This document shows, one piece after another, positions 26,513 through 57,486 of a stretch of DNA of 64,000 nt; position 1 is the first letter of the stretch, and each line of letters begins with the position of its first letter. The notes under the pieces were generated by a model, which ran no database searches, was not told the DNA's origin, and saw nothing but the letters and a program-made list of their open reading frames with translations. Origin of the DNA: a bacterium. Its GTDB lineage: Bacteria > Patescibacteriota > Dojkabacteria > JAKAPS01 > JAJZLI01. The DNA lies in NCBI GenBank assembly GCA_021816845.1, contig JAKAWT010000001.1, forward strand, positions 326,087 to 390,086, read 5' to 3'. A program made the position numbers and the translations under genes.

Positions 26513-26513
26513 C

Positions 26514-27113
26514 TTACAAACAGGATAGAGTAATAAAATTACTAATTTTTATAGTAGAATTATTCAATTTGTCATATAGCTTTCTATTTGAATATTTTAT
26601 ATACATACTTTTATTTTCTAGACAAGTTCCTAATATATAATTTTTGGCAACTATATTATTACCATAATCAATTGTATTATCTTTTTTGAATGGAATATAA
26701 AAATAATATGTAGAGTTAGAATTTGTTTTAATTTGTATTTTTTTCATTAGGGGAGTATTGAATGTGGTATTTCTACAATTTGGGTAATTTGAAGCACTAC
26801 TCATATTTAACTGAGGATTTATTACTGTTTTACACAATGTATAACTACTAAGAAGGTTTCCGTTATTTGAATATAGATCTATTATAGAAGGGACACTTTG
26901 ATCTGTTAATGTAAATATTTCATTGGGATAATAATGATATTCTTTGAAATATTTTGTTATTAGAGAATTGATACTATTAATACTATTTTTTCTTAGATTA
27001 TCTCTATATTGCTTACCTTGAATATTTATATGTAATATAGTAATTGCTAATATAATAGCAAAAACTACGACAATTACTGTTATGATAGAATCATTGGTAT
27101 AATACTTTCTCAT
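26514..27113 (-). CDS. hypothetical N-terminally anchored protein
   Basis: It has a single N-terminal TM segment followed by a polar domain. Confidence 0.4.
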   Translation of the reverse strand: MRKYYTNDSIITVIVVVFAIILAITILHINIQGKQYRDNLRKNSINSINSLITKYFKEYHYYPNEIFTLTDQSVPSIIDLYSNNGNLLSSYTLCKTVINPQLNMSSASNYPNCRNTTFNTPLMKKIQIKTNSNSTYYFYIPFKKDNTIDYGNNIVAKNYILGTCLENKSMYIKYSNRKLYDKLNNSTIKISNFITLSCL

Positions 27114-27152
27114 ATAAGAGTGATTATATAGTAATTTAAAGATAAAATAAAA

Positions 27153-29777: not shown

Positions 29778-29945
29778 TAACAAATATAGTGGATAGTTCT
29801 CAGTTAGAATATTTTTATTAAAGTTTTAATATTTTTAGACACCTAAAGTTAATTTAATGTTATAATCATTATTATATGAGAATAGCAATATTAACTCCAA
29901 CTTTTTCAAAATTTAGTGGTATAGATAGGGTTGTAGAAATATAGA

Positions 29946-31148: not shown

Positions 31149-31153
31149 AAATT

Positions 31154-32158
31154 ATGCCTAAAGTTTCAATAATAACAATCAATTATAATGGTCTTGAGGA
31201 TACTATTGGATGTTTAGAATCTCTAAAAAAAATAACATACCCTAATTATGAGGTTTTTGTTGTTGATAACGCATCAAAAAATAGAGAAGGTGAGAAATTA
31301 AAAAATAAATTTGGTAATTATATTAATTTAATTCAGAGTGATAAAAATTTAGGATTTTCAGGAGGTAATAATCTTGCTATTAGGGAAGTTATTAAAGAAG
31401 AAAAATCAAAATATATTTGTTTATTGAATAATGATACTATAGTTGAGAGAGATTTTTTAGACTATTTAGTTACTACAGCCGAAAAAAATAGAGAAATATG
31501 CTCTGTATCACCACAAATCTTAAAATATTATGATAGGAACAAAATAGATAGCCTTGGGATGTCCTACTATAAGAGTGGTTTAGTTTTTAAGATTAACAAT
31601 AATAAACTCAAAAATTCTATATTAGAAGATAAATTATTTACTGCGAATGGTAGCTGTGGACTATATAGCATAAATTCACTAAAGGATATTTGTTATGATA
31701 ATCAATATTTTGACGAAGATTTCTTTATGTACTCAGAAGAATTAGATTTAGGATTTAGATTGATACATGCTGGTTATTATCCATCTTATAATATAAAGTC
31801 AATTATATATCATAAGGTTGGGTCTTCTCTGGGAGGAGATAATAGTAATTTTTCCAGATATTATACTGTACGTAATACTTTCTTTGTTATCTATAAAAAT
31901 TATCCTACGTATTTTTTATTTAAATACTTTGTATCAATATTAATTATGCAATTTGCAATGTTCATGTTATATATTAAGAGAGGGAAATTAAGGTTATTCA
32001 TAAGATCATATAAAGATATGTTTTATATGGTATCTATAATGTATAAAAAAAGAAAATATATATTAAAAAATTCCAAAGTAGGGAATATGGGTTTATTAAA
32101 ATATTTTGAGAAATCTGTTTTTCCAATTAAATATTCTTATTTTATAAAAGAAAAATAA
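31154..32158 (+). CDS. glycosyltransferase family 2
   Basis: The VSIITINYNGLEDTIGCLESL...VVDNAS segment is the signature. Confidence 0.7.
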   Translation: MPKVSIITINYNGLEDTIGCLESLKKITYPNYEVFVVDNASKNREGEKLKNKFGNYINLIQSDKNLGFSGGNNLAIREVIKEEKSKYICLLNNDTIVERDFLDYLVTTAEKNREICSVSPQILKYYDRNKIDSLGMSYYKSGLVFKINNNKLKNSILEDKLFTANGSCGLYSINSLKDICYDNQYFDEDFFMYSEELDLGFRLIHAGYYPSYNIKSIIYHKVGSSLGGDNSNFSRYYTVRNTFFVIYKNYPTYFLFKYFVSILIMQFAMFMLYIKRGKLRLFIRSYKDMFYMVSIMYKKRKYILKNSKVGNMGLLKYFEKSVFPIKYSYFIKEK

Positions 32159-32170
32159 ATAAGTGATTAC

Positions 32171-33304
32171 CTATACAATAGGTAATCTATTTAATTTTAA
32201 ATTAAACTCCTCTATTGTATATTTATTAGAATCTCTTTGGGCATTGATAGCAACTTCTATATCATAATTTTTAATTATCCTTAAAGTTTTATTTATAAGT
32301 TCCTTTTCTGTATCCCACATGAATCCATTTATGTTGTTATTTATAATTTCCTTTTGCCCACCTTTATTAATAACTATTGGTATACAAGCAAAATACATAG
32401 ATTCAATAGTAGTCATTCCAAAATGTTCCATCTTTTCTGGGTATTTTTTTTCGTCTATCCCATATCCAGTAGCATGCCAATATATCTTAGAAATTTTATA
32501 AAACTTTATTATCTCCTCAATGGGCATATTTTGCTTTATGTCTATATTATAACTTTCTGCTAATTTTTTGAGTGTATTTAAATATGAAGTGTCCTCCTTT
32601 TTCACTGCTCCTATTAAAACTAGTTTCCATTTTTTAGTGTAAGGATACAAATCATTCATTTTTTTGAATGTTTTTATGAGTGTTATTTGTTTCTTATTAT
32701 GACCTTCCTTGGTGAATCTGCCAACTGAAAGGATTATATTTTTCTTATTTTTCAATAATTCTTTAATATCAATCTTATTCTCTTTGAAATATATAGGAGG
32801 AGTAATAATTATTGGTTCTATATCATATAGATCTTTGATGTATCCAGCAGTGAAATCGGAATTAGCTATATAAATTCTTTTCCTTTTAATTCTTTGTAAA
32901 TATAGAAGCAGTTTTTTTATTAAAGTATTAGCTTTTATAGGAAACTGAACCATATAAATATTTATATGTGAAAGCATTGGTAATGGGATGTCATTTGTAA
33001 GATATATGGTTACATAAAAAAATTTTGAATAGATAATTAATCTAAAAATACTAATATAATTCTTTATTTTATGATCTTTAATCTGAAATGCTGTATCGAA
33101 GTACTTAAATTTTGTATTAGAATTAAACTCAATTTGAAATCTCTCTTTGTATTTTTCAATAATATTATCTTTTGTATTACCACGTGGGACTACAAATGTT
33201 ATCTGATATTTATCTTTTAGATAGTTATACATACAACCAATATATTTTTCTCCCCCTCCCCATGTATTAATATATGGATCAATTATCAATAATTTTTTCT
33301 TCAT
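32171..33304 (-). CDS. glycosyltransferase family 4
   Basis: The EHFGMTTIESMYFACIPIVINKGG segment is the signature. Confidence 0.7.
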   Translation of the reverse strand: MKKKLLIIDPYINTWGGGEKYIGCMYNYLKDKYQITFVVPRGNTKDNIIEKYKERFQIEFNSNTKFKYFDTAFQIKDHKIKNYISIFRLIIYSKFFYVTIYLTNDIPLPMLSHINIYMVQFPIKANTLIKKLLLYLQRIKRKRIYIANSDFTAGYIKDLYDIEPIIITPPIYFKENKIDIKELLKNKKNIILSVGRFTKEGHNKKQITLIKTFKKMNDLYPYTKKWKLVLIGAVKKEDTSYLNTLKKLAESYNIDIKQNMPIEEIIKFYKISKIYWHATGYGIDEKKYPEKMEHFGMTTIESMYFACIPIVINKGGQKEIINNNINGFMWDTEKELINKTLRIIKNYDIEVAINAQRDSNKYTIEEFNLKLNRLPIV

Positions 33305-33308
33305 AGTA

Positions 33309-34130
33309 TTATTTTTTTATTGTATAAATTGCATATCCAGGTGTCCATATTTTTTCATTATCAAAAAATTTATCTAGAATAATGAATATATTTTTAAAAT
33401 ATTTATTTATTATTAATAAAGGGAATATTACAGGTATATAACATAGTACATATATAAATAGGTGATGGTATTTTTTATTTTTTTGTAGTAATAGATCTTG
33501 TGATAAAACACCTAGGCATAAAAATTTGCCACCCCTTGGTGTAATAAATTTTATTTTAAAACCATGATCCGTTAGAATTTTTTTTAAAAAATAATGAGTA
33601 TATCTTGTGAAGTCAAAAGGCTCTTCGTGAACATTAAATATGAATGGTATTGTTATAAATAAGCCCCCTTCTTTTTTCAATATTCTGTTAAATTCTTTTA
33701 TGACATTTTCTGTATTATAAACATGTTCTAATACTTCAGTACATAATATCGCATCAAATGATTCATTTTTAACAGGGATATTATCTGCACTGCAGAGATA
33801 ATTGATATGTTTAAAATCATGATAATTGGTTTCTCCAAAATCAGTGCTACTATAGTTTAAATCTTTAAATATAGTCCTATAAGGACAGTCTCCAGCACCT
33901 ACATCTAATATTGACATATTTTTCTTTAATAATTTTCTTGCATATAATACAAGTCCTAATATAGTTGACCTTACGTATATGTTCTGTAGAACAAAGTCTT
34001 TTATTTTACTGTTTATTAGTTCATCATTTAGTACATCATAACTGGCATTAGTTATATATTTGTAGTACATTGATCTATTCTTTATTTTATTTTTCATAAC
34101 ATGTAATATGAAATGATATAATAAATACAT
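33309..34130 (-). CDS. class I SAM-dependent methyltransferase
   Basis: It has motif I (ILDVGAGDCPY) and a downstream acidic loop (ILCTEVLEH). Confidence 0.7.
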   Translation of the reverse strand: MYLLYHFILHVMKNKIKNRSMYYKYITNASYDVLNDELINSKIKDFVLQNIYVRSTILGLVLYARKLLKKNMSILDVGAGDCPYRTIFKDLNYSSTDFGETNYHDFKHINYLCSADNIPVKNESFDAILCTEVLEHVYNTENVIKEFNRILKKEGGLFITIPFIFNVHEEPFDFTRYTHYFLKKILTDHGFKIKFITPRGGKFLCLGVLSQDLLLQKNKKYHHLFIYVLCYIPVIFPLLIINKYFKNIFIILDKFFDNEKIWTPGYAIYTIKK

Positions 34131-34145
34131 ATACTTATCAATTTT

Positions 34146-35288
34146 ATGAAGAAAACTTCTATTTTAATAATCTCTGATGCCACAATATTTGGAGGTGCTG
34201 AGAATGGTTTGTATTTATTAATTAAATTCTTAGATAGGAAAAAATTTGATATTACTCTTGCTTGTACAGATTCATATAGGATAAATGTGTTATTAGAAAA
34301 AATTAAAGATTCTAATCTAAAAATAGTAAGATTTCCAGCGGCCAAGCATAGGGAATTTGATATCAAAACCTCATATAAATTAGCAAAAATTATTTATCAG
34401 TCCAATCCAGATATTATATATGTGAATTTCATACATCATTATTATTGTAAACCTGTAATGTTTGCGATATTTCCATTCTTAAGAAAATTCAAAGTTGTTG
34501 CAGCTGAACAGCTAATTCCAGATGAAGATGAATCACAGATTATCTTTTTTAAAAGATTTTTAAACCATTTATGGATTCATATTATAGATAAATTTATAAA
34601 AACATACATAGTAGTGTCTGATCAGAATAAGGAAACTTTTATTAAGAATTTCAATATAATGGATAAGAAAATAAACGTTATAAAAAATTCTATAGAAATA
34701 AAGGAGTTTAGTAAAGATAATGTATTTAGAAACGAAATGCATTTTTCTAAAAAAGATAAAATAATGGTTACTGTAGCAAGATTAAATATTCAAAAAGGGC
34801 ACATATATTTAATAAAGGCAATAAAACAGTTAGTAAAAAAATATAAAGACGTAAAATTTATTTTTGTTGGTGACGGAGAAATAGAGTCTTATCTTAGAGA
34901 GAAAGTTGCAGAGTATTCCCTAGATAGGAGTATTTTCTTTCTAGGTTTTAGGTCTGATATTGATAGTATTTTAAATTCAAGCGATGTATTTATATTGCCT
35001 TCTTTATTTGAAGGCTTACCATTTTCTTTATTGGAGGCAATGAATCATTCACTCCCAATTGTATCTACCAATGTTGATGGAAATGCAGAAGTTATAACAA
35101 ACAATTATAATGGGTATTTGGTGAATATTAAAAGTGTCTCTGCATTATATAATGCAATATCAAAATTGATAGATAATTATGATATAGATGGATTAAAATT
35201 AGGACAAAATGGATTTGATCGCTTAAAAAAAGATTTTAATATAAGGGAAAATATTAGAAAGTTTGAAGAATTATTTATTGCTTTGTGA
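34146..35288 (+). CDS. glycosyltransferase family 4
   Basis: The PSLFEGLPFSLLEAMNHSLPIVSTNVDG segment is the signature. Confidence 0.75.
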   Translation: MKKTSILIISDATIFGGAENGLYLLIKFLDRKKFDITLACTDSYRINVLLEKIKDSNLKIVRFPAAKHREFDIKTSYKLAKIIYQSNPDIIYVNFIHHYYCKPVMFAIFPFLRKFKVVAAEQLIPDEDESQIIFFKRFLNHLWIHIIDKFIKTYIVVSDQNKETFIKNFNIMDKKINVIKNSIEIKEFSKDNVFRNEMHFSKKDKIMVTVARLNIQKGHIYLIKAIKQLVKKYKDVKFIFVGDGEIESYLREKVAEYSLDRSIFFLGFRSDIDSILNSSDVFILPSLFEGLPFSLLEAMNHSLPIVSTNVDGNAEVITNNYNGYLVNIKSVSALYNAISKLIDNYDIDGLKLGQNGFDRLKKDFNIRENIRKFEELFIAL

Positions 35289-35335
35289 AGATAGTTGTTG
35301 TTTTATAATGGTTTATATAAAGTAAGGATTAAACA

Positions 35336-36292
35336 CTAATCAAAACTCCTATAATCATATTTCTTACCTAAATTTTCTCTAAAACCATCTTTTAATGCAT
35401 TGGATAATACAACTAGGCGTAATATTTTTTTATCTAAAAAAAATATTATGAGTATATAATATTTTATATTGTATACTACATAATTTAATATTTCTTTTTT
35501 AGAAATAAGTTTGCTATTCTTTAGTATATATATATGATTCCGTATTCCATAGTATTCCTTCCATATCTGATTAGAAGAAATAATGTTAATATTTCTATTC
35601 AGAATTTTTTTTGTGTTAAACATATTTTTAGATACTTTATGCAGTAACTTACTATGTCTTATCCAGAATATTTCATATTTTTTGGATATTCTTAAGGTGA
35701 AGTCTAGATCATCTCCTTCTATAAATAAATGCTTATTTACATTACCTATCTCTTTTATAATTTTTGTTTTTATTAAAATACCTAATAGAGAAAATGTTCT
35801 TATTTTTACAAAATCTTCCTTGAAATCATTATTGTTTAATATTTCTTTATAAAATAAATAATCATTTCTCATAATTGCTTCTATTACTGCATTAAATGAG
35901 TCTTTAGTGTAAATAGTATTACAGCATAAAGCTCCAATTTTATTATTATTAAAATATTTGTTGTCAATAAGCTTTTCTAGTGCATCTTTATAAGGAATTG
36001 CATCATCATCCATTGCCCATATCCAGTCAAAATGTCTATAAGTCTTCTCAAATCCAAAATTGAACCCTCCTGCACCTCCTGTATTTTCTTTCAATTTAAA
36101 ATATCTAACTTTATCAAAAAGATTTTTTTCTTTTAAATATTCTTTTGTTCCATCTGTTGACGCATTATCTATAATATATATAGCATCTAATTTATGTGTT
36201 TGGTTTAATAGTGCATTTATATTCTCCTCTAAAAGTGTCTTTCTATTGAAAGTTACTACAACTGCTGCTATTTTAGGTTTTTTCTTATTCAT
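35336..36292 (-). CDS. glycosyltransferase family 2 (galactofuranosyl-transferase-like context)
   Basis: The IAAVVVTFNRKTLLEENINALLNQT...IIDNASTDGT segment is the signature. It overlaps glf by 4 nt. Confidence 0.7.
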   Translation of the reverse strand: MNKKKPKIAAVVVTFNRKTLLEENINALLNQTHKLDAIYIIDNASTDGTKEYLKEKNLFDKVRYFKLKENTGGAGGFNFGFEKTYRHFDWIWAMDDDAIPYKDALEKLIDNKYFNNNKIGALCCNTIYTKDSFNAVIEAIMRNDYLFYKEILNNNDFKEDFVKIRTFSLLGILIKTKIIKEIGNVNKHLFIEGDDLDFTLRISKKYEIFWIRHSKLLHKVSKNMFNTKKILNRNINIISSNQIWKEYYGIRNHIYILKNSKLISKKEILNYVVYNIKYYILIIFFLDKKILRLVVLSNALKDGFRENLGKKYDYRSFD

Positions 36293-42332: not shown

Positions 42333-43487
42333 CTATCTTTTGTTATAATATTTTTTTAAATTATCTGATATTTTGCTGTATAAAAATTTATCAGCATATT
42401 TTGTAGCATTCTTACTATAACTATCATAGTTTTCATTTATCTTTACTACTGCATTGAGCATTTCTTGTTTTTCTAGTGTTGTTAATATACCATTTTTATT
42501 ATTCTCTATAAGGTCTATTGCTGCATTATCCTCACCATTAAAACATATAACTGGAAGTCCTAATGCTAGAGCTTCTATCGTTACTATGGAGAAACCTTCT
42601 CTTTTTGATAGCATCATAAAGATCTTAGAACTTTTCATTATTCTAAATACTTCATTATTATCTTCTATAAAACCAGTAAACTTAATATTCAAATCAAGCT
42701 TTTTTGCCATATTCTTTAGATTATTTAATTCTTTCCCACCTCCTATTATTAAAGCTTTAAGATTAATTTTTCTATCTTTTGCATATTTTACAAGGTCTAT
42801 TATTTTGTCTACATTTTTAAAATCAAGAAGTCTTCCAGCATAACAAAGGTCATATTTTTTATTCTTGTTATCTATTTTTTTTATAGCATCTCTAATTCCA
42901 CTTGGTATCACAATGATTTCTCCTTTTTTATGTTGTTGTATTTTCTCTTTTGTATGTTTCGATATTGCTATTATATTTGTTGATAGCTTTAATGCTAAAT
43001 ATTGAACCACAAACCCTATACTGCCAAAAAGTAGTCCAGAATACTTTATCCAATATTTAAAATCCCACCATTCATGCCATATGGTTACAACCCTTGGGTC
43101 TGGATCCTTTGGGCCTAGGCCCTTTGGTTTTAATTTTTTTAATAAAAGTGCAAATCTTAGTGTAAATATAGGGAAATAAGGCATAGATTGAATTTCTATA
43201 ACATCAAAATTGTTTTTTATAAGGAATGGGAAAAGTTTGATTGCAAATATGATGGGTTCTAAGGTTTTTCTATTTCCATCAGGTTTATATATATCAGAGT
43301 GTTTAAAAATTGCGTGATATGTAATTTTATCTCTTATTATGGTATCGGAACATTCCCATCCTTTCATACCTACTAGATGTATTTCGTATGAGTCTTTTAG
43401 ATATGTAGAGATATTATATATTCTCTGTTCTACTCCACCTATTTGGTATGGGTATATTAGATCATATATAAATAGTAATTTCTTCAT
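42333..43487 (-). CDS. glycosyltransferase family 4
   Basis: The C-terminal SKREGFSIVTIEALALGLPVICFNGEDNAA segment is the signature. It contains the in-frame mini-repeat insertion encoding KGLGPKDPDPRV. Confidence 0.7.
   Translation of the reverse strand: MKKLLFIYDLIYPYQIGGVEQRIYNISTYLKDSYEIHLVGMKGWECSDTIIRDKITYHAIFKHSDIYKPDGNRKTLEPIIFAIKLFPFLIKNNFDVIEIQSMPYFPIFTLRFALLLKKLKPKGLGPKDPDPRVVTIWHEWWDFKYWIKYSGLLFGSIGFVVQYLALKLSTNIIAISKHTKEKIQQHKKGEIIVIPSGIRDAIKKIDNKNKKYDLCYAGRLLDFKNVDKIIDLVKYAKDRKINLKALIIGGGKELNNLKNMAKKLDLNIKFTGFIEDNNEVFRIMKSSKIFMMLSKREGFSIVTIEALALGLPVICFNGEDNAAIDLIENNKNGILTTLEKQEMLNAVVKINENYDSYSKNATKYADKFLYSKISDNLKKYYNKR
43096..43125. repeat. palindromic mini-repeat (GGGTCtgGATCC ttt GGGCCtaGGCCC ttt) in frame inside the GT4 gene
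   Basis: Read directly from the sequence. Confidence 0.8.
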
Positions 43488-46957: not shown

Positions 46958-47101
46958 ATGCCTATAGACTTGAGTAATATGGATACAGTTATTAGTGTAA
47001 GAGTAAATAAAGAGGTTAAAGAATATGCAAAAGAAGTCGCTAATTCTGCTGGGCTTACTCTAAGTTCTGTCTATACTCTTTCTGAGAACTATTATAAGTA
47101 A
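46958..47101 (+). CDS. possible small ribbon-helix-helix (RelB/DinJ-like) antitoxin-type ORF, orphan
   Basis: The 47-aa product MPIDLSNMDTVISVRVNKEVKEYAKEVANSAGLTLSSVYTLSENYYK follows the RHH pattern (ISVRVdkElk..a...A...G.slS). Its 3' end overlaps the convergent 47060-49690 gene. It may be spurious. Confidence 0.3.
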   Translation: MPIDLSNMDTVISVRVNKEVKEYAKEVANSAGLTLSSVYTLSENYYK

Positions 47102-49690
47102 TAAGATAATAATTCCAACCAGAGATAATACAATTGCAATATTTACACTTTGTGGTTCGTAGGTTAGAACTATTTTATTTGATCCTTTTTTTATATATAT
47201 TCCATCAAAGATTCCGTTTGATCTATACAATGATATATTTTCCAAATTGTCATATGCTTTAAATCCTGGATAGAACAGTTCGTTTATTATTAAAAAAGAA
47301 TCATTATTTGTTTTTGCAGTGAATGATAGGGAGTTACCTATAATTTTATAATTTGTAATCTTTACATTAGAGTTATCATTAATATATTTAATAGGAGCAT
47401 TTGTTATAGCTTCGTTTGGTATATTTAGATTTTTCATCATATTAATCTCTACTTTTTCTGACACTCCCTTCTTAAATATCACTCTCCCTGGTGCATAGAC
47501 AATAGGGACTGGATTTTTTAGCTTGTATACTATAAATGGTGGAAGATATATTGAAAAAAGATTTTTCTGTAATACTAGGTTCTTAAATTTTTTATACTCC
47601 TGTTTACTCTCTATATATTTTGATATTATATTCCTTATGTTATTTTTTATGTTTATATGATATTCAGCTATGATAGTAGAAAAATTAACATCAAGATTAT
47701 ATAAAGTTTCTAGATTTTTACTTGATAACATATTTTCCTTTCTAAGATATGATGTTGCCAATTTATAAAATTTAATTTGGTTTGAACTTAGTATCTTCGT
47801 TCCTTCAAGGTTGGTACCATTTTTTACAATTACATATTTTACTGATGCTGTCTCTAGCCATTTAATACTCTTATTTGTTATATTATTTGGGAAGAAAAAT
47901 ATTATTAGCTCATTCTTCCCTATGTTGTTGTTGTATCGTATGTAACTATTGGGTGTTACAGGATCATATGATGCATATTCATTAAATGAAGATAGATCAT
48001 TAGTTTGTGGTGCAGCGTACATCCCTGTTGGAAGCACCCTATATTCTGTTGCCTTTTTAAAGATACTTATATAGCTATTTTCTGGGGATAAATATTTTTG
48101 ATTTGATATATTTATATATGTCCAATAGTTCTCAAAGTATGTAAAAAGAGGAAAAAGAGCGAATATCCCTATAACAGTAATGACAAATAAAGAAGTAAGA
48201 GATTCTCTTTTAATCATTTTCAAAAAATATATAACGAAAGTTGATATTGTTATCATCAATATAAATAAAAGTCCCTCATGTAGTATTGATGATCGTGCGG
48301 ATATTTCTATATAGGTTAGCTGTATTTTTGAGAAAGAATACAATATTAAAATGTCTAGAAGGGCAATAATAACTGTAAATACTAAGGTGTATTTAAGGAG
48401 AATTTTGTAATTTCTATTCCTTATTAGATAATATATAGAATCAAGTCCTATAAATATTAAAATTCCATATAATATAGGAATTACTCCATCTATTCTATGG
48501 TGCAACGTATCTTCAAGTAGAGGTAGTTTAAATATGAGATTGAAGATTGGTGCGTTTATTAATATACCTGTGATAATAAATATAAGTCCTAAGATAAAAA
48601 AAGCATTTACTCTTGTTTTCTTCCTTAAAAATGCAAATATACCTATAAAAAATGCTGGTAATCCTATATAAAACGATGTCTCATTAAAGTTTGATGCCAT
48701 CAATCCCAGTGCCCCTGGTATATTAACTGATTGAGGTGGACCAAATATTCCAGGGTATATAAATTTTAATAAATATACTGGATCAATAGAATCATATATT
48801 TTTGATGATGCTCCGGATCTAGCTATATAATAGAAAGAGCGTAGTAAGTCTACTATTGCAGGGTAAGTTTGTATTGCTGATATTAAGAATCCTAATAATG
48901 CTGAGATAAGAAGGTATAGTAACACCTTGATTTGTATTCTATGTTGATCCCCTGGATCTTGATCCTGTGAATCTAGATACTTTATCATTACAAAAAAAAG
49001 GTAGAGTATAACAGGTACTAGTAATATAAGAGACATTTCTATGGTTCCAGCAAGTAATTCCATAGCACAAATTAAGGATCCAAAAATTATAATTTTAGAT
49101 GGAGATAGTCTATTTTTATGAGAAAATGATTTTTCAAGAAGCCAGAAGATATATGGAAGCATTACTATTGCTGAAGACAGGGGCCAATAAAGCCATAAGG
49201 ATACGAATCCATTAAAAGCAAGGATTAAAGATCCTATTATCCTTACCGATGATTTTTTACTATACACTGATGCAAGAAGATACCCTCCAAATGCAAATAC
49301 TAAGATTTTTAAAAATACTTCTATTTGTAGTGCTAAAGCAACACTGAAAATAAAGAAGAAGGGGAGTATTAGTGGATAGAAAGCTTGAGATTGGTCGTTT
49401 CCAAGAAGTGGTAATCCTGCAAGATTATGGAATTGCCAGAGAGGCAGTGTAAAATTTTTAAAATCATTAGATACTTCATATGCCCAAGGAAATGTATTTA
49501 GTAATACATCCTCATAATTTACTGTTTTAATGCTTATAGAACTTGTTACATTATGGTACAAAGGCATTATTTTGTATGCATATTTAGGAAACATTACCTT
49601 TGAGAGTAAAACAGGGTAGAAAAATAATACTATGACTGCGAATATTATTATAAGATCACGAATAATATTCTTTTTTCTTGGTTTGTTCAT
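47060..49690 (-). CDS. large polytopic membrane protein, YfhO/GT-C-like putative glycosyltransferase
   Basis: It is 876 aa with many N-terminal TM helices and a large C-terminal domain, and it sits next to a GtrB-like GT2. It contains the in-frame mini-repeat encoding DSQDQDPGDQHRIQ. Confidence 0.45.
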   Translation of the reverse strand: MNKPRKKNIIRDLIIIFAVIVLFFYPVLLSKVMFPKYAYKIMPLYHNVTSSISIKTVNYEDVLLNTFPWAYEVSNDFKNFTLPLWQFHNLAGLPLLGNDQSQAFYPLILPFFFIFSVALALQIEVFLKILVFAFGGYLLASVYSKKSSVRIIGSLILAFNGFVSLWLYWPLSSAIVMLPYIFWLLEKSFSHKNRLSPSKIIIFGSLICAMELLAGTIEMSLILLVPVILYLFFVMIKYLDSQDQDPGDQHRIQIKVLLYLLISALLGFLISAIQTYPAIVDLLRSFYYIARSGASSKIYDSIDPVYLLKFIYPGIFGPPQSVNIPGALGLMASNFNETSFYIGLPAFFIGIFAFLRKKTRVNAFFILGLIFIITGILINAPIFNLIFKLPLLEDTLHHRIDGVIPILYGILIFIGLDSIYYLIRNRNYKILLKYTLVFTVIIALLDILILYSFSKIQLTYIEISARSSILHEGLLFILMITISTFVIYFLKMIKRESLTSLFVITVIGIFALFPLFTYFENYWTYINISNQKYLSPENSYISIFKKATEYRVLPTGMYAAPQTNDLSSFNEYASYDPVTPNSYIRYNNNIGKNELIIFFFPNNITNKSIKWLETASVKYVIVKNGTNLEGTKILSSNQIKFYKLATSYLRKENMLSSKNLETLYNLDVNFSTIIAEYHINIKNNIRNIISKYIESKQEYKKFKNLVLQKNLFSIYLPPFIVYKLKNPVPIVYAPGRVIFKKGVSEKVEINMMKNLNIPNEAITNAPIKYINDNSNVKITNYKIIGNSLSFTAKTNNDSFLIINELFYPGFKAYDNLENISLYRSNGIFDGIYIKKGSNKIVLTYEPQSVNIAIVLSLVGIIILLLIIVLRKSIDRT
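48942..48980. repeat. palindromic mini-repeat (GATCC cct GGATCttGATCC tgt GAATCtaGATAC) in frame inside the YfhO-like gene
   Basis: Read directly from the sequence. Confidence 0.8.
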
Positions 49691-49810
49691 AAACTATATT
49701 ATACAATAGCCCTAATATTATTGGTTAACACTATTTATGGGAATTACAGTAAGATAATTCAATGATTTCTTTATCTTGTAGATAAAAATAACTTCCCTAG
49801 AAGATTACTT

Positions 49811-51955
49811 TTGAATCTGTTCTTTTGGGTAAAAATAAACTATGATTTAATCTATATGATTAAACAATCTAAATTTGTGTTTTTAAATATTGTTTTTCTT
49901 CTTCTAATATTTTTATATATTTTATTATTTTTTGGAGTTTCTTCATCACTGATCTTTTTTCTCATTTTTATAATTATATGTTTATTCATATACATGGAAG
50001 ATGGAAGTATAAAAGATAGAATATTAAATTTTATACGTTTATATATAGAGAGTATATATAAATACAGTGGAGTAACTCTCATACCAATACTCTTTTTTAT
50101 TGCATACTCATTACATCCTCTTTATTTTCTTTTATACACTATATCCTTAATATTATTGATTATATTTCTAATTCTATCTTTCTTTCGTTCTCGTGTAGTA
50201 GGAGGGGAGAGTATAAGGTTTGGTAACGTAAAAGAAGAGAGTTCGGAGGAGTTTTTTTTAAGATTATCCATGTATGAACCATTTTCAATGCAGATTGAAA
50301 GGAGTTCTGATAAAGTCTTTGGAACATTACTAGTTTCAAAATCTAAATATCAGTTTGTTTTAGATTTATTACATTCATATTATCCAAATTTAAGCTTCCT
50401 TGGATCTGGTTCCTCTGAAACCAGTTATGTTGAAACTAATTCTCTTGAGCATAAACCACTTAAAAAATATTTCAGAGTAAAAAGTAGAATGTTAGTTGAT
50501 ACAAGTAAGGAAAGTTTTAGTAAGGTTATACCTATTTTATATGAAGAAAAAGATTTTAGAATAAGTTTTAATGTAATTAATCCTCTTATGTTGTCAGAAT
50601 CTTCTTTTGGGTATCTTGAAATTGAATCTGACGATGCTATTTTGATTGAAAGGATAAGGGCAATATATAAGATAGGGATTCCGCATCTAATTATTCAAAA
50701 TAAGGATATAGGCAATGTAATGAATTTTATAAAGGATAGAGAATATAGGAAAGATATGGAGAAAGAAACAATATCAATAATGCCCGATCAATCTTTTTTT
50801 AAACCTTCAGGATCTTTGCTTGGGTATTATAAAGATATATCAAGAGGTGTATTAAAAGAGGTATATATATCAGATGAAATGAGATTAAATCATTCATACA
50901 CTATTGGAAAGACAGGTGTTGGAAAATCTACTTTTCTTGTGAATTTAATACTTCAGGATATATATAAAGGTCACTCTGTCATAGTTCTAGATCCACATGA
51001 TCTTATTGATAGAATATTTAAATTTTACCCAAGTAATAAAAAAAATGATTTATACTTAATTGATTTTAAAAATCTAAAATATTCATTTAATCCTCTCTTA
51101 AATTTAAATAATATTGATATTTCTTTATTAGTTGATAGTATTGTTTCCGTATTCCATAATTTATATAAGGATTTCTGGGGACCTCAGAGTGAGGATATCC
51201 TACGTAGATCCTTATATGCATTAATTTTATATAACGATTCTAATAAATTTGGTGAGAAAGTGAATGTGAATTATTCTATATTAGATATAGAGGAGTTTTT
51301 AACAGATGAACACTTTAGGTTACAAGTACTCCAAAGGATAGAAGATGTAGAAGTTAAATATTATTTTGATACCATATATAAAAGTTGGGATCAAAGGTCA
51401 AGGAATGAGAAGATAGCACCAATTTTGAATAAAATAGGAAGAATAAAATCTGATAGAATTCTTAGAGAATTTTTATCAGGACCCTCTGAACAGTTGAATT
51501 TTAAAAAAGCTATGTTACAAGAGAAAGTTATACTGTTTGATCTTAAAAAGAGTGTTATGGGTGATGAAAATTCTAAGTTTTTAGGCTCATTACTTGTATC
51601 TCAAATACAAAATGAGATCATTATAAAGAATGGAGGACCAGAAGTATATTTATATATAGATGAATTTCAGAACTTTGTATCGGATAGTTTTTTATTCTTC
51701 TTCTCAGAAAGTAGGAAATTTAAAGTTTCTCTCAATATATCTAATCAGTACTTAACTCAAATCCCACAGGCTATAGCTGATGCTGTAATAGAGAATTCAG
51801 GAATATTCTATATATTTAAACAAGGAGAGAAATCGAGAGTGAAATTGTCTAAATATTTTAATTTTGAGATAGAAGATTTACCAAAATATTGTCTGTATGT
51901 CAAAATTTTAGATAATAATATTTTTACAATATCATCCAATGGAAAATATCAATAA
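49811..51955 (+). CDS. membrane-anchored P-loop ATPase, type IV coupling protein (VirD4/TraG) or FtsK/TraB-like
   Basis: It has N-terminal TM helices, a Walker A (TIGKTGVGKSTFL) followed by VIVLDPHD (DPKG-like), and a Walker B (LYIDEFQNF). It also contains a mini-repeat (50402-50428) encoding LGSGSSETS. Confidence 0.5.
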   Translation: MNLFFWVKINYDLIYMIKQSKFVFLNIVFLLLIFLYILLFFGVSSSLIFFLIFIIICLFIYMEDGSIKDRILNFIRLYIESIYKYSGVTLIPILFFIAYSLHPLYFLLYTISLILLIIFLILSFFRSRVVGGESIRFGNVKEESSEEFFLRLSMYEPFSMQIERSSDKVFGTLLVSKSKYQFVLDLLHSYYPNLSFLGSGSSETSYVETNSLEHKPLKKYFRVKSRMLVDTSKESFSKVIPILYEEKDFRISFNVINPLMLSESSFGYLEIESDDAILIERIRAIYKIGIPHLIIQNKDIGNVMNFIKDREYRKDMEKETISIMPDQSFFKPSGSLLGYYKDISRGVLKEVYISDEMRLNHSYTIGKTGVGKSTFLVNLILQDIYKGHSVIVLDPHDLIDRIFKFYPSNKKNDLYLIDFKNLKYSFNPLLNLNNIDISLLVDSIVSVFHNLYKDFWGPQSEDILRRSLYALILYNDSNKFGEKVNVNYSILDIEEFLTDEHFRLQVLQRIEDVEVKYYFDTIYKSWDQRSRNEKIAPILNKIGRIKSDRILREFLSGPSEQLNFKKAMLQEKVILFDLKKSVMGDENSKFLGSLLVSQIQNEIIIKNGGPEVYLYIDEFQNFVSDSFLFFFSESRKFKVSLNISNQYLTQIPQAIADAVIENSGIFYIFKQGEKSRVKLSKYFNFEIEDLPKYCLYVKILDNNIFTISSNGKYQ
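50402..50428. repeat. palindromic mini-repeat copy (GGATCtgGTTCC tct GAAACcaGTTat) in frame inside the ATPase gene
   Basis: Read directly from the sequence. Confidence 0.6.
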
Positions 51956-52733
51956 GAATGACATTGTACTTGGATTGGTTCCAAGGGGACTGGTCCCAAT
52001 GGGACTGGCCCCAAAGATACTCAATTTTATAGACCAACATCCATTCGTATCGTCTTTGGATATTGCAACTTTTTTTTCTTTGGATATTAGGAGAGTTAGA
52101 AGTATAGTATCCAAACTTCAGAAAGAAAATTTTTTAGATTTTATTACAAAACCAGTATTTTTCATAAATAGTAATGTGAGGTATTTTTATACTACAAAAA
52201 AAGGTCATTTGATTGTGGGATCTGGTAGATCTGGATCTAAGGATAGATATATAAAGGCTGATAAAGATATTATAAATTTATATCTTGATCATAATGTAGA
52301 ATCCAACAAATTTTTTATTAGATTAAAAAAATATTCCATAGATAATAATTTAAATTTTGAGGATTGGGTGTCAGATTTAAATTTGATATTTAAATTTAAA
52401 TATAACAATAGATCATATACTCTAAAACCAGATGGTTTTTGTATACTTGGTAAGGATAATATATTTTTGGAACTTGATATGGCCACAGAGAGTTCTTTCC
52501 GTATATTTGAAAAGATAGATAGCTATTCTGCTTTTTATCTATCATATGAATATCTAAAATATTTTAAGAAAAATCCTTTTGTTATATTTTTAACTCCAAA
52601 TAAATACAGAGAGAAATTCTTGAAAGATAAAGTATCATATTTTATGGATACAAAGAAATACAAGAAAGAATTAAATTTTTTTAAATTTATAAACTTTAAA
52701 GATTTTCATCAAGATCCATCTATAGTATTATAA
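51939..52733 (+). CDS. replication-relaxation (Replic_Relax)-like winged-helix protein
   Basis: It has an N-terminal wHTH-like region (LNFIDQHPFVSSLDIATFFSLDIRRVRSIVSKL), then YTLKPDGFCILGKDNIFLELDMATES (PDa ... f.lE.D.gTE pattern). Mini-repeats occur at 51972-52012 and 52216-52240. The true start may be M21 at 51999. Confidence 0.45.
   Translation: MENINKNDIVLGLVPRGLVPMGLAPKILNFIDQHPFVSSLDIATFFSLDIRRVRSIVSKLQKENFLDFITKPVFFINSNVRYFYTTKKGHLIVGSGRSGSKDRYIKADKDIINLYLDHNVESNKFFIRLKKYSIDNNLNFEDWVSDLNLIFKFKYNNRSYTLKPDGFCILGKDNIFLELDMATESSFRIFEKIDSYSAFYLSYEYLKYFKKNPFVIFLTPNKYREKFLKDKVSYFMDTKKYKKELNFFKFINFKDFHQDPSIVL
51972..52012. repeat. palindromic mini-repeat variant (GGATTggTTCC aag GGGACtgGTCCC aat GGGACtgGCCCC) at the junction of the ATPase and Replic_Relax genes
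   Basis: Read directly from the sequence. It encodes LVPRGLVPMGLAP in the annotated frame. Confidence 0.75.
52216..52240. repeat. palindromic mini-repeat copy (GGGATCtgGTAGATCtgGATCTA) in frame
   Basis: Read directly from the sequence. It encodes GSGRSGSK. Confidence 0.65.
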
Positions 52734-52747
52734 TATCAGATCTTTTT

Positions 52748-53815
52748 GTGGTAAAATACGAATTTGTTATGCAAGAGGCTTTATTTTTTGAAAAAGAAGA
52801 CACTCCTATAGAGGTAGTTCCTAGTAAGGAATCATCTTTAAGATTTTTCCATTACCAAGGGTTAGAAGAAGGTACATTAGAGTATCAAGAAGCCTTGGAT
52901 ATAGAGAGTATGATACTAGGAGGTATTGATACAATATCCATGTTTGAGATGTATGTAGAACGTCTAAATATTTTATCTAGAGATAAGAAATATTCTGGTA
53001 TTAGAAGCATAGAAGATTTAAAAAAATATGAAAAGATATCCCCTGCATATAGAGATCTACGTTTACTTATACAGGAATATTTTGGAGATTTTGTACCAGA
53101 TTATTTTAGAAGTAGGATAGATAGAGATTATAAGCAGAAAACTAGCTCATTCAGGAGTTCGTCATATTTTGTATCTACAAACCCAGAAGATGAGGTTTTT
53201 ACTCATAGATTTGAAATAGAGGCTCATACACAATTTATGCAGGAAGGATATAACAAAGTATCTCCTTCAAGACTTAGGGTGAGGGTGGCAAGAATACAAA
53301 AAGAAGGGGATCATTTTAAAAATATAGATTTTGCAGGTATAAGGATGGATATATTATCTATAGCTCCTGATAGACACCTTCTGGTTTATGATCTTGAATA
53401 TGATTATGGTGATTCTAAAGATAATGGAGTTGGCAAGATTTTTAGTTGTGTTTCTGATATTCTAATATCTTATTACAATGGAGATATAGATGTAAATGTT
53501 GCTGATTTCACTACAGGCATATTTCAACTCCAAATCAATATAGCCGAAGAAATGACTGGGTTCAAGTTTAGTAAGGATCCAATTGTCATACTAAACTATA
53601 TAAAAAATAATAGTAAGTATCATATAGATACTAATAAACGATATCCATTACAATCAAATTCTTCATATAGAATACTGTTCTCCCATATGGATGATGTAGA
53701 ACTTAGGATTATTTCAGAGAAGCAAAGGTTACATATTGATGGAAAAAGGTCTAAAATAAAGAGAGATAGATCCAAATCAAGAAGGACTAGGCCTCTATGG
53801 GATGATGATGAATAA
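52748..53815 (+). CDS. hypothetical protein with a basic C-terminal tail (KRSKIKRDRSKSRRTRP)
   Basis: This is the third gene of the ATPase/Replic_Relax module. No catalytic motif was recognised. Confidence 0.4.
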   Translation: MVKYEFVMQEALFFEKEDTPIEVVPSKESSLRFFHYQGLEEGTLEYQEALDIESMILGGIDTISMFEMYVERLNILSRDKKYSGIRSIEDLKKYEKISPAYRDLRLLIQEYFGDFVPDYFRSRIDRDYKQKTSSFRSSSYFVSTNPEDEVFTHRFEIEAHTQFMQEGYNKVSPSRLRVRVARIQKEGDHFKNIDFAGIRMDILSIAPDRHLLVYDLEYDYGDSKDNGVGKIFSCVSDILISYYNGDIDVNVADFTTGIFQLQINIAEEMTGFKFSKDPIVILNYIKNNSKYHIDTNKRYPLQSNSSYRILFSHMDDVELRIISEKQRLHIDGKRSKIKRDRSKSRRTRPLWDDDE

Positions 53816-53817
53816 TT

Positions 53818-53997
53818 ATGCAAGATAGGGATATAAAGGTTTATACAATACCAAAATCAAAAGGTTTCGGCCCAAGAAAATTATACTCATCGTATGGAAT
53901 GGGCGGATGTTTTTCTTGTGTTATACTTTCCCTATTGATGTTGTTTATATTCATCCTAGGCATAATATCCTTAATACATATTTTGTTTAGTTTATAA
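53818..53997 (+). CDS. possible small membrane peptide (59 aa)
   Basis: Its ATG overlaps the upstream stop (ATGATGAATAAttATG context). It has a single TM segment (CFSCVILSLLMLFIFILGIISLIHILF). It may be spurious. Confidence 0.2.
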   Translation: MQDRDIKVYTIPKSKGFGPRKLYSSYGMGGCFSCVILSLLMLFIFILGIISLIHILFSL

Positions 53998-54374
53998 AAA
54001 CTGTATAACATAGATATCTCACATTTTTTTGTATTTATTGTAATATATTCGTAAGATTTTTATCCTACTAGAGATAGTAGCTGTAATAGCTAAAATATCA
54101 GGCCAAAGCTATATCCTCTTTTGACTCTTGTATAGAAAATTGAGGTTTAAACTCATGGAAGATATATTGATATTGAATAATAGTTATTAATGAGTACTTG
54201 GATACAAAGGGTTTTTGCAATTTTTAAATTTTTACTGTAACATATGCAAGTTAGATATATAATAATCATGAAAAGAAAAGCAGCAAGATTAATACTAAAA
54301 AAGAAAGCTAAGGAACAAAGAATTAGGATAAGAGAACAGAAAAAAGCTAGATTGTTGAAAGCTAAAGAATAATT

Positions 54375-55133
54375 TTAAAGAATACCCCACTTTAGAAGAT
54401 ATTGTAGATAACCTTTATATAGAAGGATCTTTCTTCTGACTCCTAATTTTTTTGTACTTTCTCCATATAGATGTAGTACTTTTGCTGTATTAAGATAATA
54501 TGTCTTTATATTATTTTTTTTCATTTTTCTAAAGAAGTCTACATCATTAAAATATAGGGGGAATCGTTCATCAAATAACCCATATTGTGCTATAACGGAG
54601 GATCTTATAAGTATACAAGTAGCTTGTGGTTGATCAACTTCTCTTGAGTCCCTATGATCCCAATTTTTAAGTTTATAATCATTAAAAAGAATATTATAAA
54701 AAGATGGGAATTTTCTACATGATTTTTGGATGGAGTGATCTTTATTTATAAGTTGAGGTGCTACAATTTGGTAATTTCTCTTTGGATTAAGATCCTTTGG
54801 ATCAAGATCCTTTGGGTCAAGACACTCATCAAGGAAATTTACTAATTTTTCTATTGCATGATCTATAATTTCTGTATCAGAGCCAAGTAGCATAATGTAT
54901 TCTCCTCTGGCTTTTTTAACCCCTTGATTCATCGCCTTTGCAAAATATATATTCTGATCATTTTTGATAAATTTTATATGTGGATCTTCTAGATAAGAAC
55001 TTTTTAAGTCTGAGTTGTTGTCAATTAGTATAATCTCATATAGGAAAGGTAGCCCTTTTATACTTTTTATTAGATTTAAAACTGTATCTTTTGTATTCCA
55101 GTTTACTATAATTATGGAGAGTTTTATCTTCAT
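54375..55133 (-). CDS. glycosyltransferase family 2
   Basis: The LSIIIVNWNTKDTVLNLIKSI...LIDNNSD segment is the signature. An in-frame mini-repeat encodes KDLDPKDLDPKDLNPK. Confidence 0.7.
   Translation of the reverse strand: MKIKLSIIIVNWNTKDTVLNLIKSIKGLPFLYEIILIDNNSDLKSSYLEDPHIKFIKNDQNIYFAKAMNQGVKKARGEYIMLLGSDTEIIDHAIEKLVNFLDECLDPKDLDPKDLNPKRNYQIVAPQLINKDHSIQKSCRKFPSFYNILFNDYKLKNWDHRDSREVDQPQATCILIRSSVIAQYGLFDERFPLYFNDVDFFRKMKKNNIKTYYLNTAKVLHLYGESTKKLGVRRKILLYKGYLQYLLKWGIL
54784..54825. repeat. palindromic mini-repeat (GGATTaaGATCC ttt GGATCaaGATCC ttt GGGTCaaGACAC) in frame inside the GT2 gene
   Basis: Read directly from the sequence. Confidence 0.85.
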
Positions 55134-57236: not shown

Positions 57237-57363
57237 TTGATTGAATTTTAATATATAAAATAATTCAATTATGGTATGGGGTATGGATTTACAAGATTAC
57301 TCAACTAGTTTGATTATTCCTGATTATAGATTTAAAATTGTTAATAATATATAATAATTACTA

Positions 57364-57455
57364 ATCAAGAGTGATGGGGAGAGAATTGGCTCAATAATCC
57401 ATCCAGCAACCGAAAAGAAATTTCACGGTGCTACATCCAACCATGAGGAGAGATT
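57364..57455 (+). promoter_or_regulatory. SAM-I (S-box) riboswitch aptamer upstream of metK
   Basis: It carries AUCAAGAG...GGGGAGAGAAUUGGCUCAAUAAUCCAUCCAGCAACC...GGUGCUACAUCC...CAUGAGGAGAGA, which matches the conserved S-box core (AUCaAGAG, GAGGGA, GCAACC, GGUGC, GAUGAG) in the correct order. Confidence 0.65.
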
Positions 57456-57486
57456 TGATCTAATGATTTTAGATAAACTTATTGTA

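Follow-up and report, generated by a model that had tools for sequence, protein, structure and literature searches.

The 64-kb window analysed here (64,000 nucleotides of contig JAKAWT010000001.1, assembly GCA_021816845.1, a Patescibacteria metagenome-assembled genome with a GC content of ~30% in the window) carries, amid genes for glycosylation, a compact operon in which the gene for a putative type IV coupling protein (T4CP) is directly followed by that for a candidate MOBC-type relaxase and then by two lineage-specific genes. With a confidence a little better than even, we favour the view that this operon was acquired once, became fixed in the chromosome and has been kept by selection, presumably nicking DNA for a type IV secretion system (T4SS) encoded elsewhere. 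This view is founded on what was observed of the families, order, synteny, selection and phylogenetic affinity of the genes; it goes beyond these observations in assuming nicking, a DNA substrate, a T4SS that is used in trans, and roles for the third and fourth genes. The features of the operon, with the evidence for each, are as follows.

49790-49855 (+), conserved leader, the presumed promoter and ribosome-binding site region of the operon (DNA alignment of relatives)
49856-51955 (+), gene 1, T4CP-like P-loop ATPase (ORF and motifs, invariant M16, fold and profile matches)
51939-52733 (+), gene 2, MOBC-type relaxase candidate of the Replic_Relax family with a winged helix-turn-helix (PF13814, PHROG 9381)
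51972-52014, GC-rich 15-nt tandem mini-repeat within the relaxase gene, absent from all orthologues
52748-53815 (+), gene 3, lineage-restricted protein (alignment, mosaic identity profile)
53818-53997 (+), gene 4, small membrane protein (DNA alignment, transmembrane segment)

Three co-directional open reading frames (ORFs), closely packed at 49811-51955, 51939-52733 and 52748-53815, lie in the block just as the initial annotation, made from the letters of the window, had described them. That annotation spoke of a three-gene module; the three ORFs are real, but a fourth conserved gene at 53818-53997 had been overlooked. The relaxase gene starts 17 nt before the stop of the ATPase gene, and gene 4 begins 3 nt past the stop of gene 3. 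As the four genes overlap or nearly abut, we regard them as one operon. In the DNA of relatives, conservation starts near 49790 and everything further upstream differs: toxin-antitoxin (TA) modules or mini-repeat arrays are found there in relatives, and a divergent YfhO-like gene in the window. The glycosyltransferase surroundings noted initially are genuine, and housekeeping genes are present there too; the neighbours comprise the YfhO-like membrane protein, many glycosyltransferases, undecaprenyl-related genes, metK, murJ, pgi and groES/EL. In the NCBI annotation (PGAP), the orthologues are named 'replication-relaxation family protein' and 'type IV secretory system conjugative DNA transfer family protein'.

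The identity of protein 2 (264 aa) bears most directly on the nature of the operon. It matches the Replic_Relax profile PF13814 with an E-value of 2e-15 (57.7 bits, cut-off 25.3) over profile positions 1-187 of 191, so that the family proposed initially, with an N-terminal winged helix-turn-helix (wHTH), is borne out. An HTH_24 match at residues 26-65 (E 0.003) is by itself below the Pfam cut-off, and the relaxase profile gives weak matches to MntR-type wHTH domains. In PHROGs, protein 2 hits PHROG 9381, 'replication initiation by nicking' (8e-13), and a 'replication initiation protein' family (2e-7). The PDG and LELDMATES motifs that had been pointed out at first sight are found at residues 164-166 and 177-185, respectively. 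In an alignment of six sequences, including a Bacillus plasmid homologue of 24% identity, no variation is seen at P164-D165-G166, E178 and K192, and an acidic residue occupies position 180 throughout.

Replic_Relax proteins were described by Steczkiewicz et al. as having a PD-(D/E)XK fold, usually fused to an HTH (PMC3424549), and Coluzzi et al. 2017 equated PF13814 proteins with MobC of CONJscan (PMC5357655). The integrative and mobilisable elements (IMEs) with a PF13814 relaxase are those encoding a VirD4-type coupling protein (CP), in a compact CP-relaxase arrangement (PMC5357655). The MOBC prototypes, TraX of pAD1 and MobC of CloDF13, are restriction-endonuclease-like proteins with an N-terminal wHTH, which bind direct repeats 70-120 bp from the nick site (nic) and yield no covalent DNA adduct (PMC12857230). 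The initial annotation had stated that no relaxase was visible; this was wrong, because Replic_Relax (PF13814) is itself the MOBC relaxase family. Judged from its sequence, protein 2 is a member of the MOBC relaxase superfamily and a candidate relaxase, and the block appears to hold a complete DNA-processing pair of T4CP and relaxase.

The listed ORF of gene 1 begins with TTG at 49811, giving the 714 aa reported initially, and the database gene call begins later (653 aa). The ORF is real, but translation most likely starts at the ATG at 49856 (M16 of the listed ORF; 699 aa), because M16 is invariant in the homologues and DNA conservation begins near 49790. The motifs read initially from the translation are all present: Walker A (IGKTGVGKST) at 365-374, LDPHD at 393-397 and Walker B (YIDEFQNF) at 614-621. 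All of 27 homologues share G366, G371, K372, D394 and P395, and at least 90% of them have D617 and E618. The N-terminal transmembrane helices proposed initially probably number about four, as two hydrophobic blocks (1-52 and 75-117, counted from M16) leave room for that many; both blocks are helical in an AlphaFold2 model. The protein is laid out as transmembrane helices, an alpha/beta region of ~200 aa and an ATPase domain at ~345-700.

By profile, the ATPase passes the Pfam DUF87/HerA cut-off (26.3 bits); the NCBIfam TraD models give local matches of about 50-70 residues, far below cut-off, and FtsK_SpoIIIE matches the P-loop only (15.2 bits, cut-off 24). Its homologues carry the TrwB_AAD_bind, T4SS-DNA_transf and TraG-D_C domains, and all three of these Pfam T4CP models are passed by one homologue, P0009, whose identity is 25% over the alignment and 32% in its best local match. 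The AlphaFold2 model, built from 27 homologues, has a pLDDT of 75.8 overall and >90 in the ATPase domain, and comprises a helical membrane anchor, the alpha/beta linker and, inserted between the two Walker motifs, an all-alpha part (helices at 437-556, pLDDT >85). The best PDB fold is TrwB of R388 (E 3e-12, TM-score 0.61-0.64, ~400 aligned columns), and Cag-beta and DotL are also among the fold matches. When the family profile was compared with PDB sequences, TrwB (7e-12) and DotL (3e-10) were on top. From the domains of the homologues, the TrwB matches heading both the fold and the profile searches, and the FtsK_SpoIIIE score below threshold, gene 1 is predicted to encode a T4CP of the TrwB/VirD4 class, not an FtsK/TraB translocase. 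Of the two types suggested initially, VirD4/TraG or FtsK/TraB, the former is thus retained and the latter dropped.

The same searches bear on two rival explanations of the ATPase and its partner. The first is a replicon module of an integrated plasmid or phage-like element, namely a nicking initiator with a DNA pump or packaging motor, or else double-stranded DNA transfer of the TraB kind. It draws on the PHROG replication-initiation matches of protein 2, on matches of the ATPase to phrog_5156 (unknown function, 1e-40) and, weakly, to a terminase-like family, and on the Pfam text for PF13814, which reads 'replication-relaxation'. Nevertheless, the window has no other replicon, phage or partition genes, a scan of viral contigs was empty, and among 50,697 phage genome records the ATPase gave weak matches (22-25% identity, E no better than 4e-14) and Replic_Relax none; we accordingly rejected a phage origin. 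A TraB-type system, moreover, is contradicted by the sub-threshold FtsK_SpoIIIE score and would not need a relaxase, which is present and conserved here. We regard this explanation as highly improbable.

The second is a defence pair against phages or plasmids, composed of a HerA/FtsK-type ATPase and a PD-(D/E)XK nuclease and residing in a variable island with TA genes. PADLOC reports mad8 on the ATPase domain (E 2e-11) along with weak HerA matches, HerA-effector defence complexes occur among the fold matches (~1e-10), the partner has the PD-(D/E)XK nuclease fold (PMC3424549), and TA modules stand beside the block in relatives. However, just one of the eight MADS components is matched and the nuclease has no PADLOC match; the mad8 hit was set aside as generic similarity between ATPase domains, leaving the novel defence module raised in the initial annotation with nothing else behind it. 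The multi-pass membrane anchor at the N terminus and the TrwB-like all-alpha insertion also speak against defence, as do the higher ranks of TrwB and DotL over HerA in fold and profile searches, the location of the homologous Bacillus pair within a conjugation gene cluster, and the position of the block, which is fixed and not patchy among the close relatives recovered. A defence function is, in our estimation, very unlikely.

As for mobility, no integrase/recombinase, VirB4 or other T4SS channel gene was found among the called genes of the 64-kb window, in agreement with the initial annotation, and no integrase occurs in the flanks of the relatives either. The suggested check of the flanks for att sites or tRNA targets gave nothing: the 64-kb window has no tRNA, and no flanking direct-repeat (att) pair exceeds chance. 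Searches at the operon for an origin of transfer (oriT), att sites, promoters and terminators yielded no candidate above the background of AT-rich DNA, though an oriT might lie at another place or be too short to be recognised.

The block lies between the YfhO-like gene and a pair of family 2 glycosyltransferase (GT2) genes in the window and in the related loci L003, L004 and L006-L012, which represent about five distinct genomes. In the relatives it consists of four genes, or of three plus a tandem paralogue of gene 3, and TA cassettes are variably inserted at both of its borders. No empty site was found in this small sample of relatives; a metagenome scan for empty sites with the YfhO-like neighbour, and a scan of viral and metagenome contigs with the relaxase alignment, likewise returned nothing. 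In a distant relative, L002 (GroEL 77% and MurJ 70% identical), the ATPase (39%) and the relaxase (41%) also occur in this neighbourhood, separated from each other by a different small gene.

The genes of the block have diverged together with their surroundings. Amino-acid identity to the window is about 85% for the ATPase, 72-81% for the relaxase and 60-72% for gene 3; the corresponding values for nearby genes are 77-82% (YfhO-like), 74% (GT2a), 87% (GT2b), 85% (aminotransferase), 80% (MetK), 86% (PGI), 94% (MurJ) and 94% (GroEL). Synonymous divergence (dS; Nei-Gojobori estimates, as for the non-synonymous dN) of the module follows that of the flanks in each genome pair; when the window is compared with L009, the ATPase has a dS of 0.90 and the relaxase one of 0.93, as against 0.55-1.17 in the flanks. 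The dN/dS ratios are 0.09-0.11 for the ATPase, 0.09-0.14 for the relaxase, 0.06-0.18 for the small membrane gene, 0.17-0.41 for gene 3 and 0.03-0.36 for flanking genes. The GC content of the block, overall and at third codon positions, is indistinguishable from that of its neighbours and host. Among the genomes recovered, the block is inherited vertically at a fixed chromosomal site under purifying selection, and does not behave as a mobile element.

The initial annotation had proposed a decayed or minimal mobilisable or conjugative element, and had held that a housekeeping ATPase in a syntenic, universally present block would speak against it. As the block sits at one site in every relative recovered, synteny and presence across the genomes largely hold; the ATPase, on the other hand, does not fall in a housekeeping family. 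What stands of the proposal is the derivation from conjugation or mobilisation machinery, but not a recent insertion or visible decay, given the synteny and the purifying selection.

Decay is the crux of a further explanation, according to which the block is an inert relic, left by a mobilisable element that had integrated and then lost its integrase and att sites, and its genes are decaying without contributing to the cell. Such a relic would be expected to lack an integrase, att repeats, a tRNA and T4SS genes nearby, as is the case, and it would accommodate the absence of the relaxase from L005, its frameshift in L012, the fast evolution of gene 3, the repeat insertion within the relaxase of this genome and the TA modules piling up at both borders in relatives. 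It does not readily accommodate ORFs that are intact in about five divergent genomes at dS up to ~0.9, nor the dN/dS ratios of ATPase, relaxase and small membrane gene, which, at ~0.1, are as low as those of neighbouring housekeeping genes. The putative active-site residues are, in addition, invariant as far as the Bacillus homologue, and neutral DNA would not be expected to last in genomes of ~0.5-1 Mb such as these, with contigs of 355-575 kb. An inert relic is thus unlikely in our view.

The origin of the pair was approached through its closest relatives outside the lineage. A tblastn search of plasmids with the ATPase gave matches in plasmids of the Bacillus cereus group. In pCh25_53 of Bacillus cytotoxicus, for which MOB-suite gives the relaxase type MOBC, a T4CP homologue (25% identity, E 2e-21) is directly followed by a Replic_Relax gene (24% identity, E 4e-8), and TcpD-family, TcpE-family and VirB4-like genes come after the pair. 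For comparison within the phylum, we examined the best 80 of 446 relatives from a genome scan (L019-L098). These widespread Patescibacteria T4CPs, from Saccharibacteria, Gracilibacteria, Peregrinibacteria, Uhrbacteria, Shapirobacteria and other groups, show 30-36% identity, and none of these 80 loci has a Replic_Relax gene within 10 kb. Their recurrent neighbours are a gene with sigma70_r4 and HARE-HTH domains and the housekeeping genes secDF, topA, mnmA, alaS and murG. Ahead of the T4CP and in the same direction, the sigma70_r4/HARE-HTH gene was counted in 31 of 77 loci and an unannotated ~479-aa gene in 29 of 77.

In a neighbour-joining (NJ) tree of the ATPase domain, the clade of the window (the window, P0002, P0004 and P0005) and the Bacillus plasmid T4CP formed an exclusive group in 188 of 200 bootstraps, and this group lay outside the clade of the 77 widespread Patescibacteria T4CPs in 145 of 200. 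Taken with the shared gene order, the tree suggests that the pair was acquired as a unit from an element of the monoderm type, and does not descend from a resident T4CP.

The third gene differs from the pair in its mode of evolution. Its ORF of 355 aa begins with GTG at 52748, and the protein probably starts at the ATG at 52769 (M8; 348 aa). Helical parts at the N- and C-terminal sides enclose a central beta region, and after them come an Arg/Lys-rich stretch and a nearly invariant RPxWDDD(E/G) end. The description given initially, a 355-aa protein with a basic tail and no recognisable domain, is confirmed: no family was found for it in Pfam or NCBIfam, and its PHROGs and PADLOC matches are non-significant (E 0.015-0.27). 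Homologues form just 5 clusters among 5.8 billion sequences. Against 1.84 billion representatives, the gene 3 profile recovered the family itself, a 327-aa paralogue and P0044 (1224 aa, E 8e-13), which matches profile positions 195-223 only, in 13 repeated stretches, and nothing else. The paralogue stands in tandem in L003, L009 and L010 and is without the acidic C-terminal end. The profile has no match among PDB sequences, and hhalign detected no similarity either to the Bacillus plasmid neighbour or to the 151-aa gene of L002. A structure predicted by AlphaFold2 from a 5-sequence alignment is unusable (pLDDT 36.6).

The alleles of gene 3 are distributed as a mosaic at 52781-53770 of the window, as compared with L004, L007, L009 and L011. 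Genome pairs that are 95-100% identical in DNA through the ATPase and relaxase genes drop to 62-79% in gene 3 and then recover. In a sliding-window comparison, the identity of L004 with L011 is 97-100% for most of the ATPase and relaxase genes, 62-79% over 52781-53578 (central gene 3), 86% over 53579-53770 and again 96% in the small gene; over the gene 3 interval, L004 becomes 85-94% identical to L009. Because the mosaic is clean and its breakpoints are at the gene borders, divergent alleles of gene 3 must have been swapped as a cassette between lineages. In these alignments gene 3 behaves like a specificity determinant or an effector and not like a core enzyme; as a hypothesis only, its product might be an adaptor or a substrate of the T4CP.

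The small membrane protein encoded by gene 4 is 59 aa long in the window and 54-59 aa in relatives, with the N terminus MQD(K/R)DIKVYTI and a C-terminal transmembrane helix. Its ORF was seen in the window, L004, L007, L009 and L011, directly after gene 3 or its paralogue, and the gene is conserved in all relatives; the database annotation puts a gene on the wrong strand here. The protein has no Pfam family and shows no similarity to TcpD.

Palindromic mini-repeats had been reported initially in all three of the genes first described, but a clear array is present in the Replic_Relax gene only. There, a 15-nt unit with the palindromic core GGGACTGGTCCC is repeated 2.9 times at 51972-52014, making a 15-aa in-frame insertion near the N terminus that is unique to this genome (product VLGLVPRGLVPMGLAP), and the palindromic repeat GGGACNNGTCCC is likewise confined to the relaxase gene. 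The small membrane gene has one 15-nt insertion of the mini-repeat type, and no mini-repeats were found in the ATPase gene or gene 3. In the window at large, GC-rich mini-repeats with palindromic cores (GGGACTGGTCCC, GGATCC-type) lie in AT-rich coding sequence at 51972-52014, 54780-54822, 16055-16100 and 43086-43128; those at 51972-52014 and 54780-54822 are in-frame tandem 15-nt arrays (an example of a glycosyltransferase product is LDPKDLDPKDLNPK). Arrays of GGGGATCTTGATCC are found directly upstream of the ATPase gene in L007 and L011.

The peculiarities of gene 3 invite an explanation by exaptation, in which the T4CP recruits protein substrates to the T4SS needed for epibiotic growth, with gene 3 encoding a translocated effector or an adaptor whose basic C-terminal tail would be the recognition signal, and the relaxase acting as a regulator or a DNA-binding partner. 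The survey of Quinonero-Coronel et al. 2025 proposes that Patescibacteria T4CPs are possibly exapted and their T4SSs mostly non-conjugative (PMC12102498). Gene 3 is hypervariable, sometimes duplicated and cassette-swapped, as effectors and specificity determinants are, and its Arg/Lys-rich tail is followed by the nearly invariant WDDD(E/G). C-terminal tails with a positive charge are one of the known kinds of signal for a T4SS. The conserved nuclease motif of the relaxase, however, is unneeded in a pure regulator, and library and PDB searches with gene 3 brought up neither a toxin domain nor an enzymatic one, its structure prediction being uninformative. An immunity-like gene co-varying with gene 3 is not seen either: between L004 and L007, the small gene is 100% identical and gene 3 57% identical. 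Exaptation for protein export has, we think, a small chance of being correct.

A bolder possibility is that a plasmid-derived operon was domesticated as a system for DNA donation or nucleoprotein export through the essential T4SS, with gene 3 setting the specificity for the partner or host, either as an adaptor recognised by the T4CP or as a co-transferred effector. If this is the case, it would mean gene flow independent of mobile elements, or host manipulation, in ultra-small epibiotic bacteria; we hold it to be rather improbable.

Under the favoured reading of a once-acquired, chromosomally fixed T4CP-relaxase operon, the following course of events can be envisaged. An ancestor of the lineage would have acquired the T4CP-relaxase pair (the DNA transfer and replication, or Dtr, pair) as a unit from a conjugative or mobilisable element of the monoderm type. 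The integrase and transfer-channel genes would have been lost, or never have been present in cis, and the operon would have become fixed at one site. By analogy with TraX of pAD1 and with MobC and MobB of CloDF13, the last of which is a T4CP, the relaxase may bind its cognate site via the wHTH and nick one strand with its nuclease domain. A hexameric membrane T4CP may then recognise the nucleoprotein complex and pump it toward a type IV channel encoded elsewhere. Such a channel could be provided by the chromosomal MPF-FATA-like T4SS that most Patescibacteria carry. Gene 3 and the 59-aa protein would be accessory, the former as an adaptor or substrate and the latter as a membrane partner of the T4CP.

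Several points weigh against this reading. At the level of the proteins, the ATPase passes, of the Pfam models, DUF87/HerA alone and no T4CP model; the HerA, DndH (DndH-C) and VirB4 folds lie within ~1-2 orders of magnitude of TrwB; and the catalytic residues of the relaxase were equated by conservation in the alignment only. At the level of the locus, there is neither an oriT-like direct-repeat array nor a nic-type inverted repeat in or around the operon, and no VirB4 or T4SS gene in the 64 kb of the window, the part of the genome that was searched; L005, like L002 one of the more distant genomes, retains the ATPase without the relaxase, and the frameshifted relaxase of L012 is on a metagenomic contig. 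The NJ grouping with the Bacillus T4CP comes from a rough distance tree and joins two long branches. The 2025 survey, finally, holds that the T4SSs of Patescibacteria are mostly not for conjugation, and a t4cp of Saccharibacteria was not essential (PMC12102498).

The same survey places the operon in its wider context. It counted 5,713 VirD4-type T4CPs in 2,918 Patescibacteria genomes, mostly far from virB4, and only 109 relaxases in the phylum, of which MOBC is the commonest type (58 of 109); 39 relaxase genes adjoin a t4cp (PMC12102498). None of the assemblies studied here is among those listed in the accessible part of its supplement (PMC12102498). The T4SS is almost universal in Patescibacteria and essential for epibiotic growth, but relaxases are rare, and therefore whether the phylum ever uses its T4SS for DNA transfer is open (PMC12102498). 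An operon that stays intact at one site despite dS up to ~0.9 offers a testable candidate for relaxase-dependent DNA processing in these bacteria. With MOBC relaxases, which form no covalent DNA adduct, the hand-over of the DNA to the coupling protein is itself in question, and genes 3 and 4 of the operon are obvious candidates for that step. If the operon turns out instead to be a stranded remnant, it would indicate that mobilisation genes can persist under selection after the element is lost.

Some further features of the surroundings deserve mention. Of two ~875-aa proteins encoded in the glycosylation locus, the one at 47060-49690 (-), a polytopic membrane protein that resembles YfhO only faintly and at its C terminus, is the conserved left neighbour of the operon, and the other, at 27153-29777 (+), has no Pfam match on record. 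On the right, the ~230 bp at 54011-54240 are a non-coding insert found in this genome only; at this junction the relatives have nothing (L009) or TA cassettes (L004, L006 and L007), and the two ends of the operon both look like hot spots at which TA modules insert. Next to it, a conserved ORF at 54268-54372 (+) encodes an extremely basic peptide of 34 aa, MKRKAARLILKKKAKEQRIRIREQKKARLLKAKE, without a Pfam family; the AT-rich stretch upstream of it is conserved as well, and the ORF is also present in L009 and L007, directly before the convergent GT2 gene. An S-adenosylmethionine (SAM) riboswitch (RF00162, 51 bits) precedes metK at 57359-57459 (+). Farther away, the run of glycosyltransferase genes at about 24000-36000 has a GC content of 22-25%, as against ~30% for the window, which suggests a compositionally distinct and possibly exchangeable cassette for glycan synthesis.

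Among known systems, precedent for a chromosomal relaxase/T4CP pair like that of the window comes from the gonococcal genetic island of Neisseria gonorrhoeae, in which a chromosomal pair of TraI (MOBH, non-HUH) and TraD reportedly processes chromosomal DNA for export. That island differs in having an HD-type MOBH relaxase with a complete F-like T4SS alongside, and in being an acquired island with presence/absence polymorphism. Streptomyces TraB, invoked as a precedent in the initial annotation, resembles the ATPase of the window as a hexameric P-loop DNA pump of the FtsK/HerA/VirD4 superfamily that is associated with the membrane and has no T4SS genes beside it; the comparison fails in that the ATPase of the window stays below the FtsK_SpoIIIE threshold, has T4CPs such as TrwB and DotL as its closest folds, and is translationally linked to a relaxase gene. 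HerA-nuclease defence systems and MADS are set apart by a likeness confined to the mad8 domain, by the other MADS genes not being found, and by the membrane anchor.

The closest organisation is that of mobilisation modules. Class 8 of the streptococcal IMEs combines a VirD4-type CP, a PF13814/MobC relaxase and a serine integrase (PMC5357655). As in these IMEs and in the CloDF13 and pAD1 modules, a VirD4/TrwB-class gene in the window directly precedes a PF13814 relaxase gene in a compact, co-directional arrangement (PMC5357655, PMC12857230), and the relaxase has an N-terminal wHTH as does TraX of pAD1 (PMC12857230). Those modules, however, reside on plasmids or on excising, integrase-bearing elements, whereas the block of the window has no integrase, excisionase, att repeats or tRNA target, shows no positional polymorphism in the relatives recovered, and is fixed and vertically inherited. 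It also differs from them in the two extra lineage-specific genes after the relaxase and in that no oriT was identified around the operon. With pCh25_53, it shares a homologous T4CP and Replic_Relax in the same order and orientation, as well as the closest T4CP lineage in the NJ tree; there, unlike in the window, the TcpD, TcpE and VirB4-like transfer genes follow the pair, and the T4CP, at 966 aa, differs in its N- and C-terminal extensions.

With the set compiled in the Patescibacteria survey (PMC12102498), the operon has phylum and components in common. The survey reads such relaxases as parts of acquired mobile elements (PMC12102498), whereas the pair studied here is syntenic, has co-diverged with its flanks and is under purifying selection, and its T4CP is a lineage apart from the T4CPs widespread in Patescibacteria, which have housekeeping genes around them and no relaxase. 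Because T4CP-adjacent relaxases had already been counted in that survey, and are annotated by PGAP, the T4CP-relaxase core is of a known kind. Less ordinary are its fixation without mobility genes, its housekeeping-like conservation, the separate origin of its T4CP and the two orphan genes in the same operon, one of them recombining.

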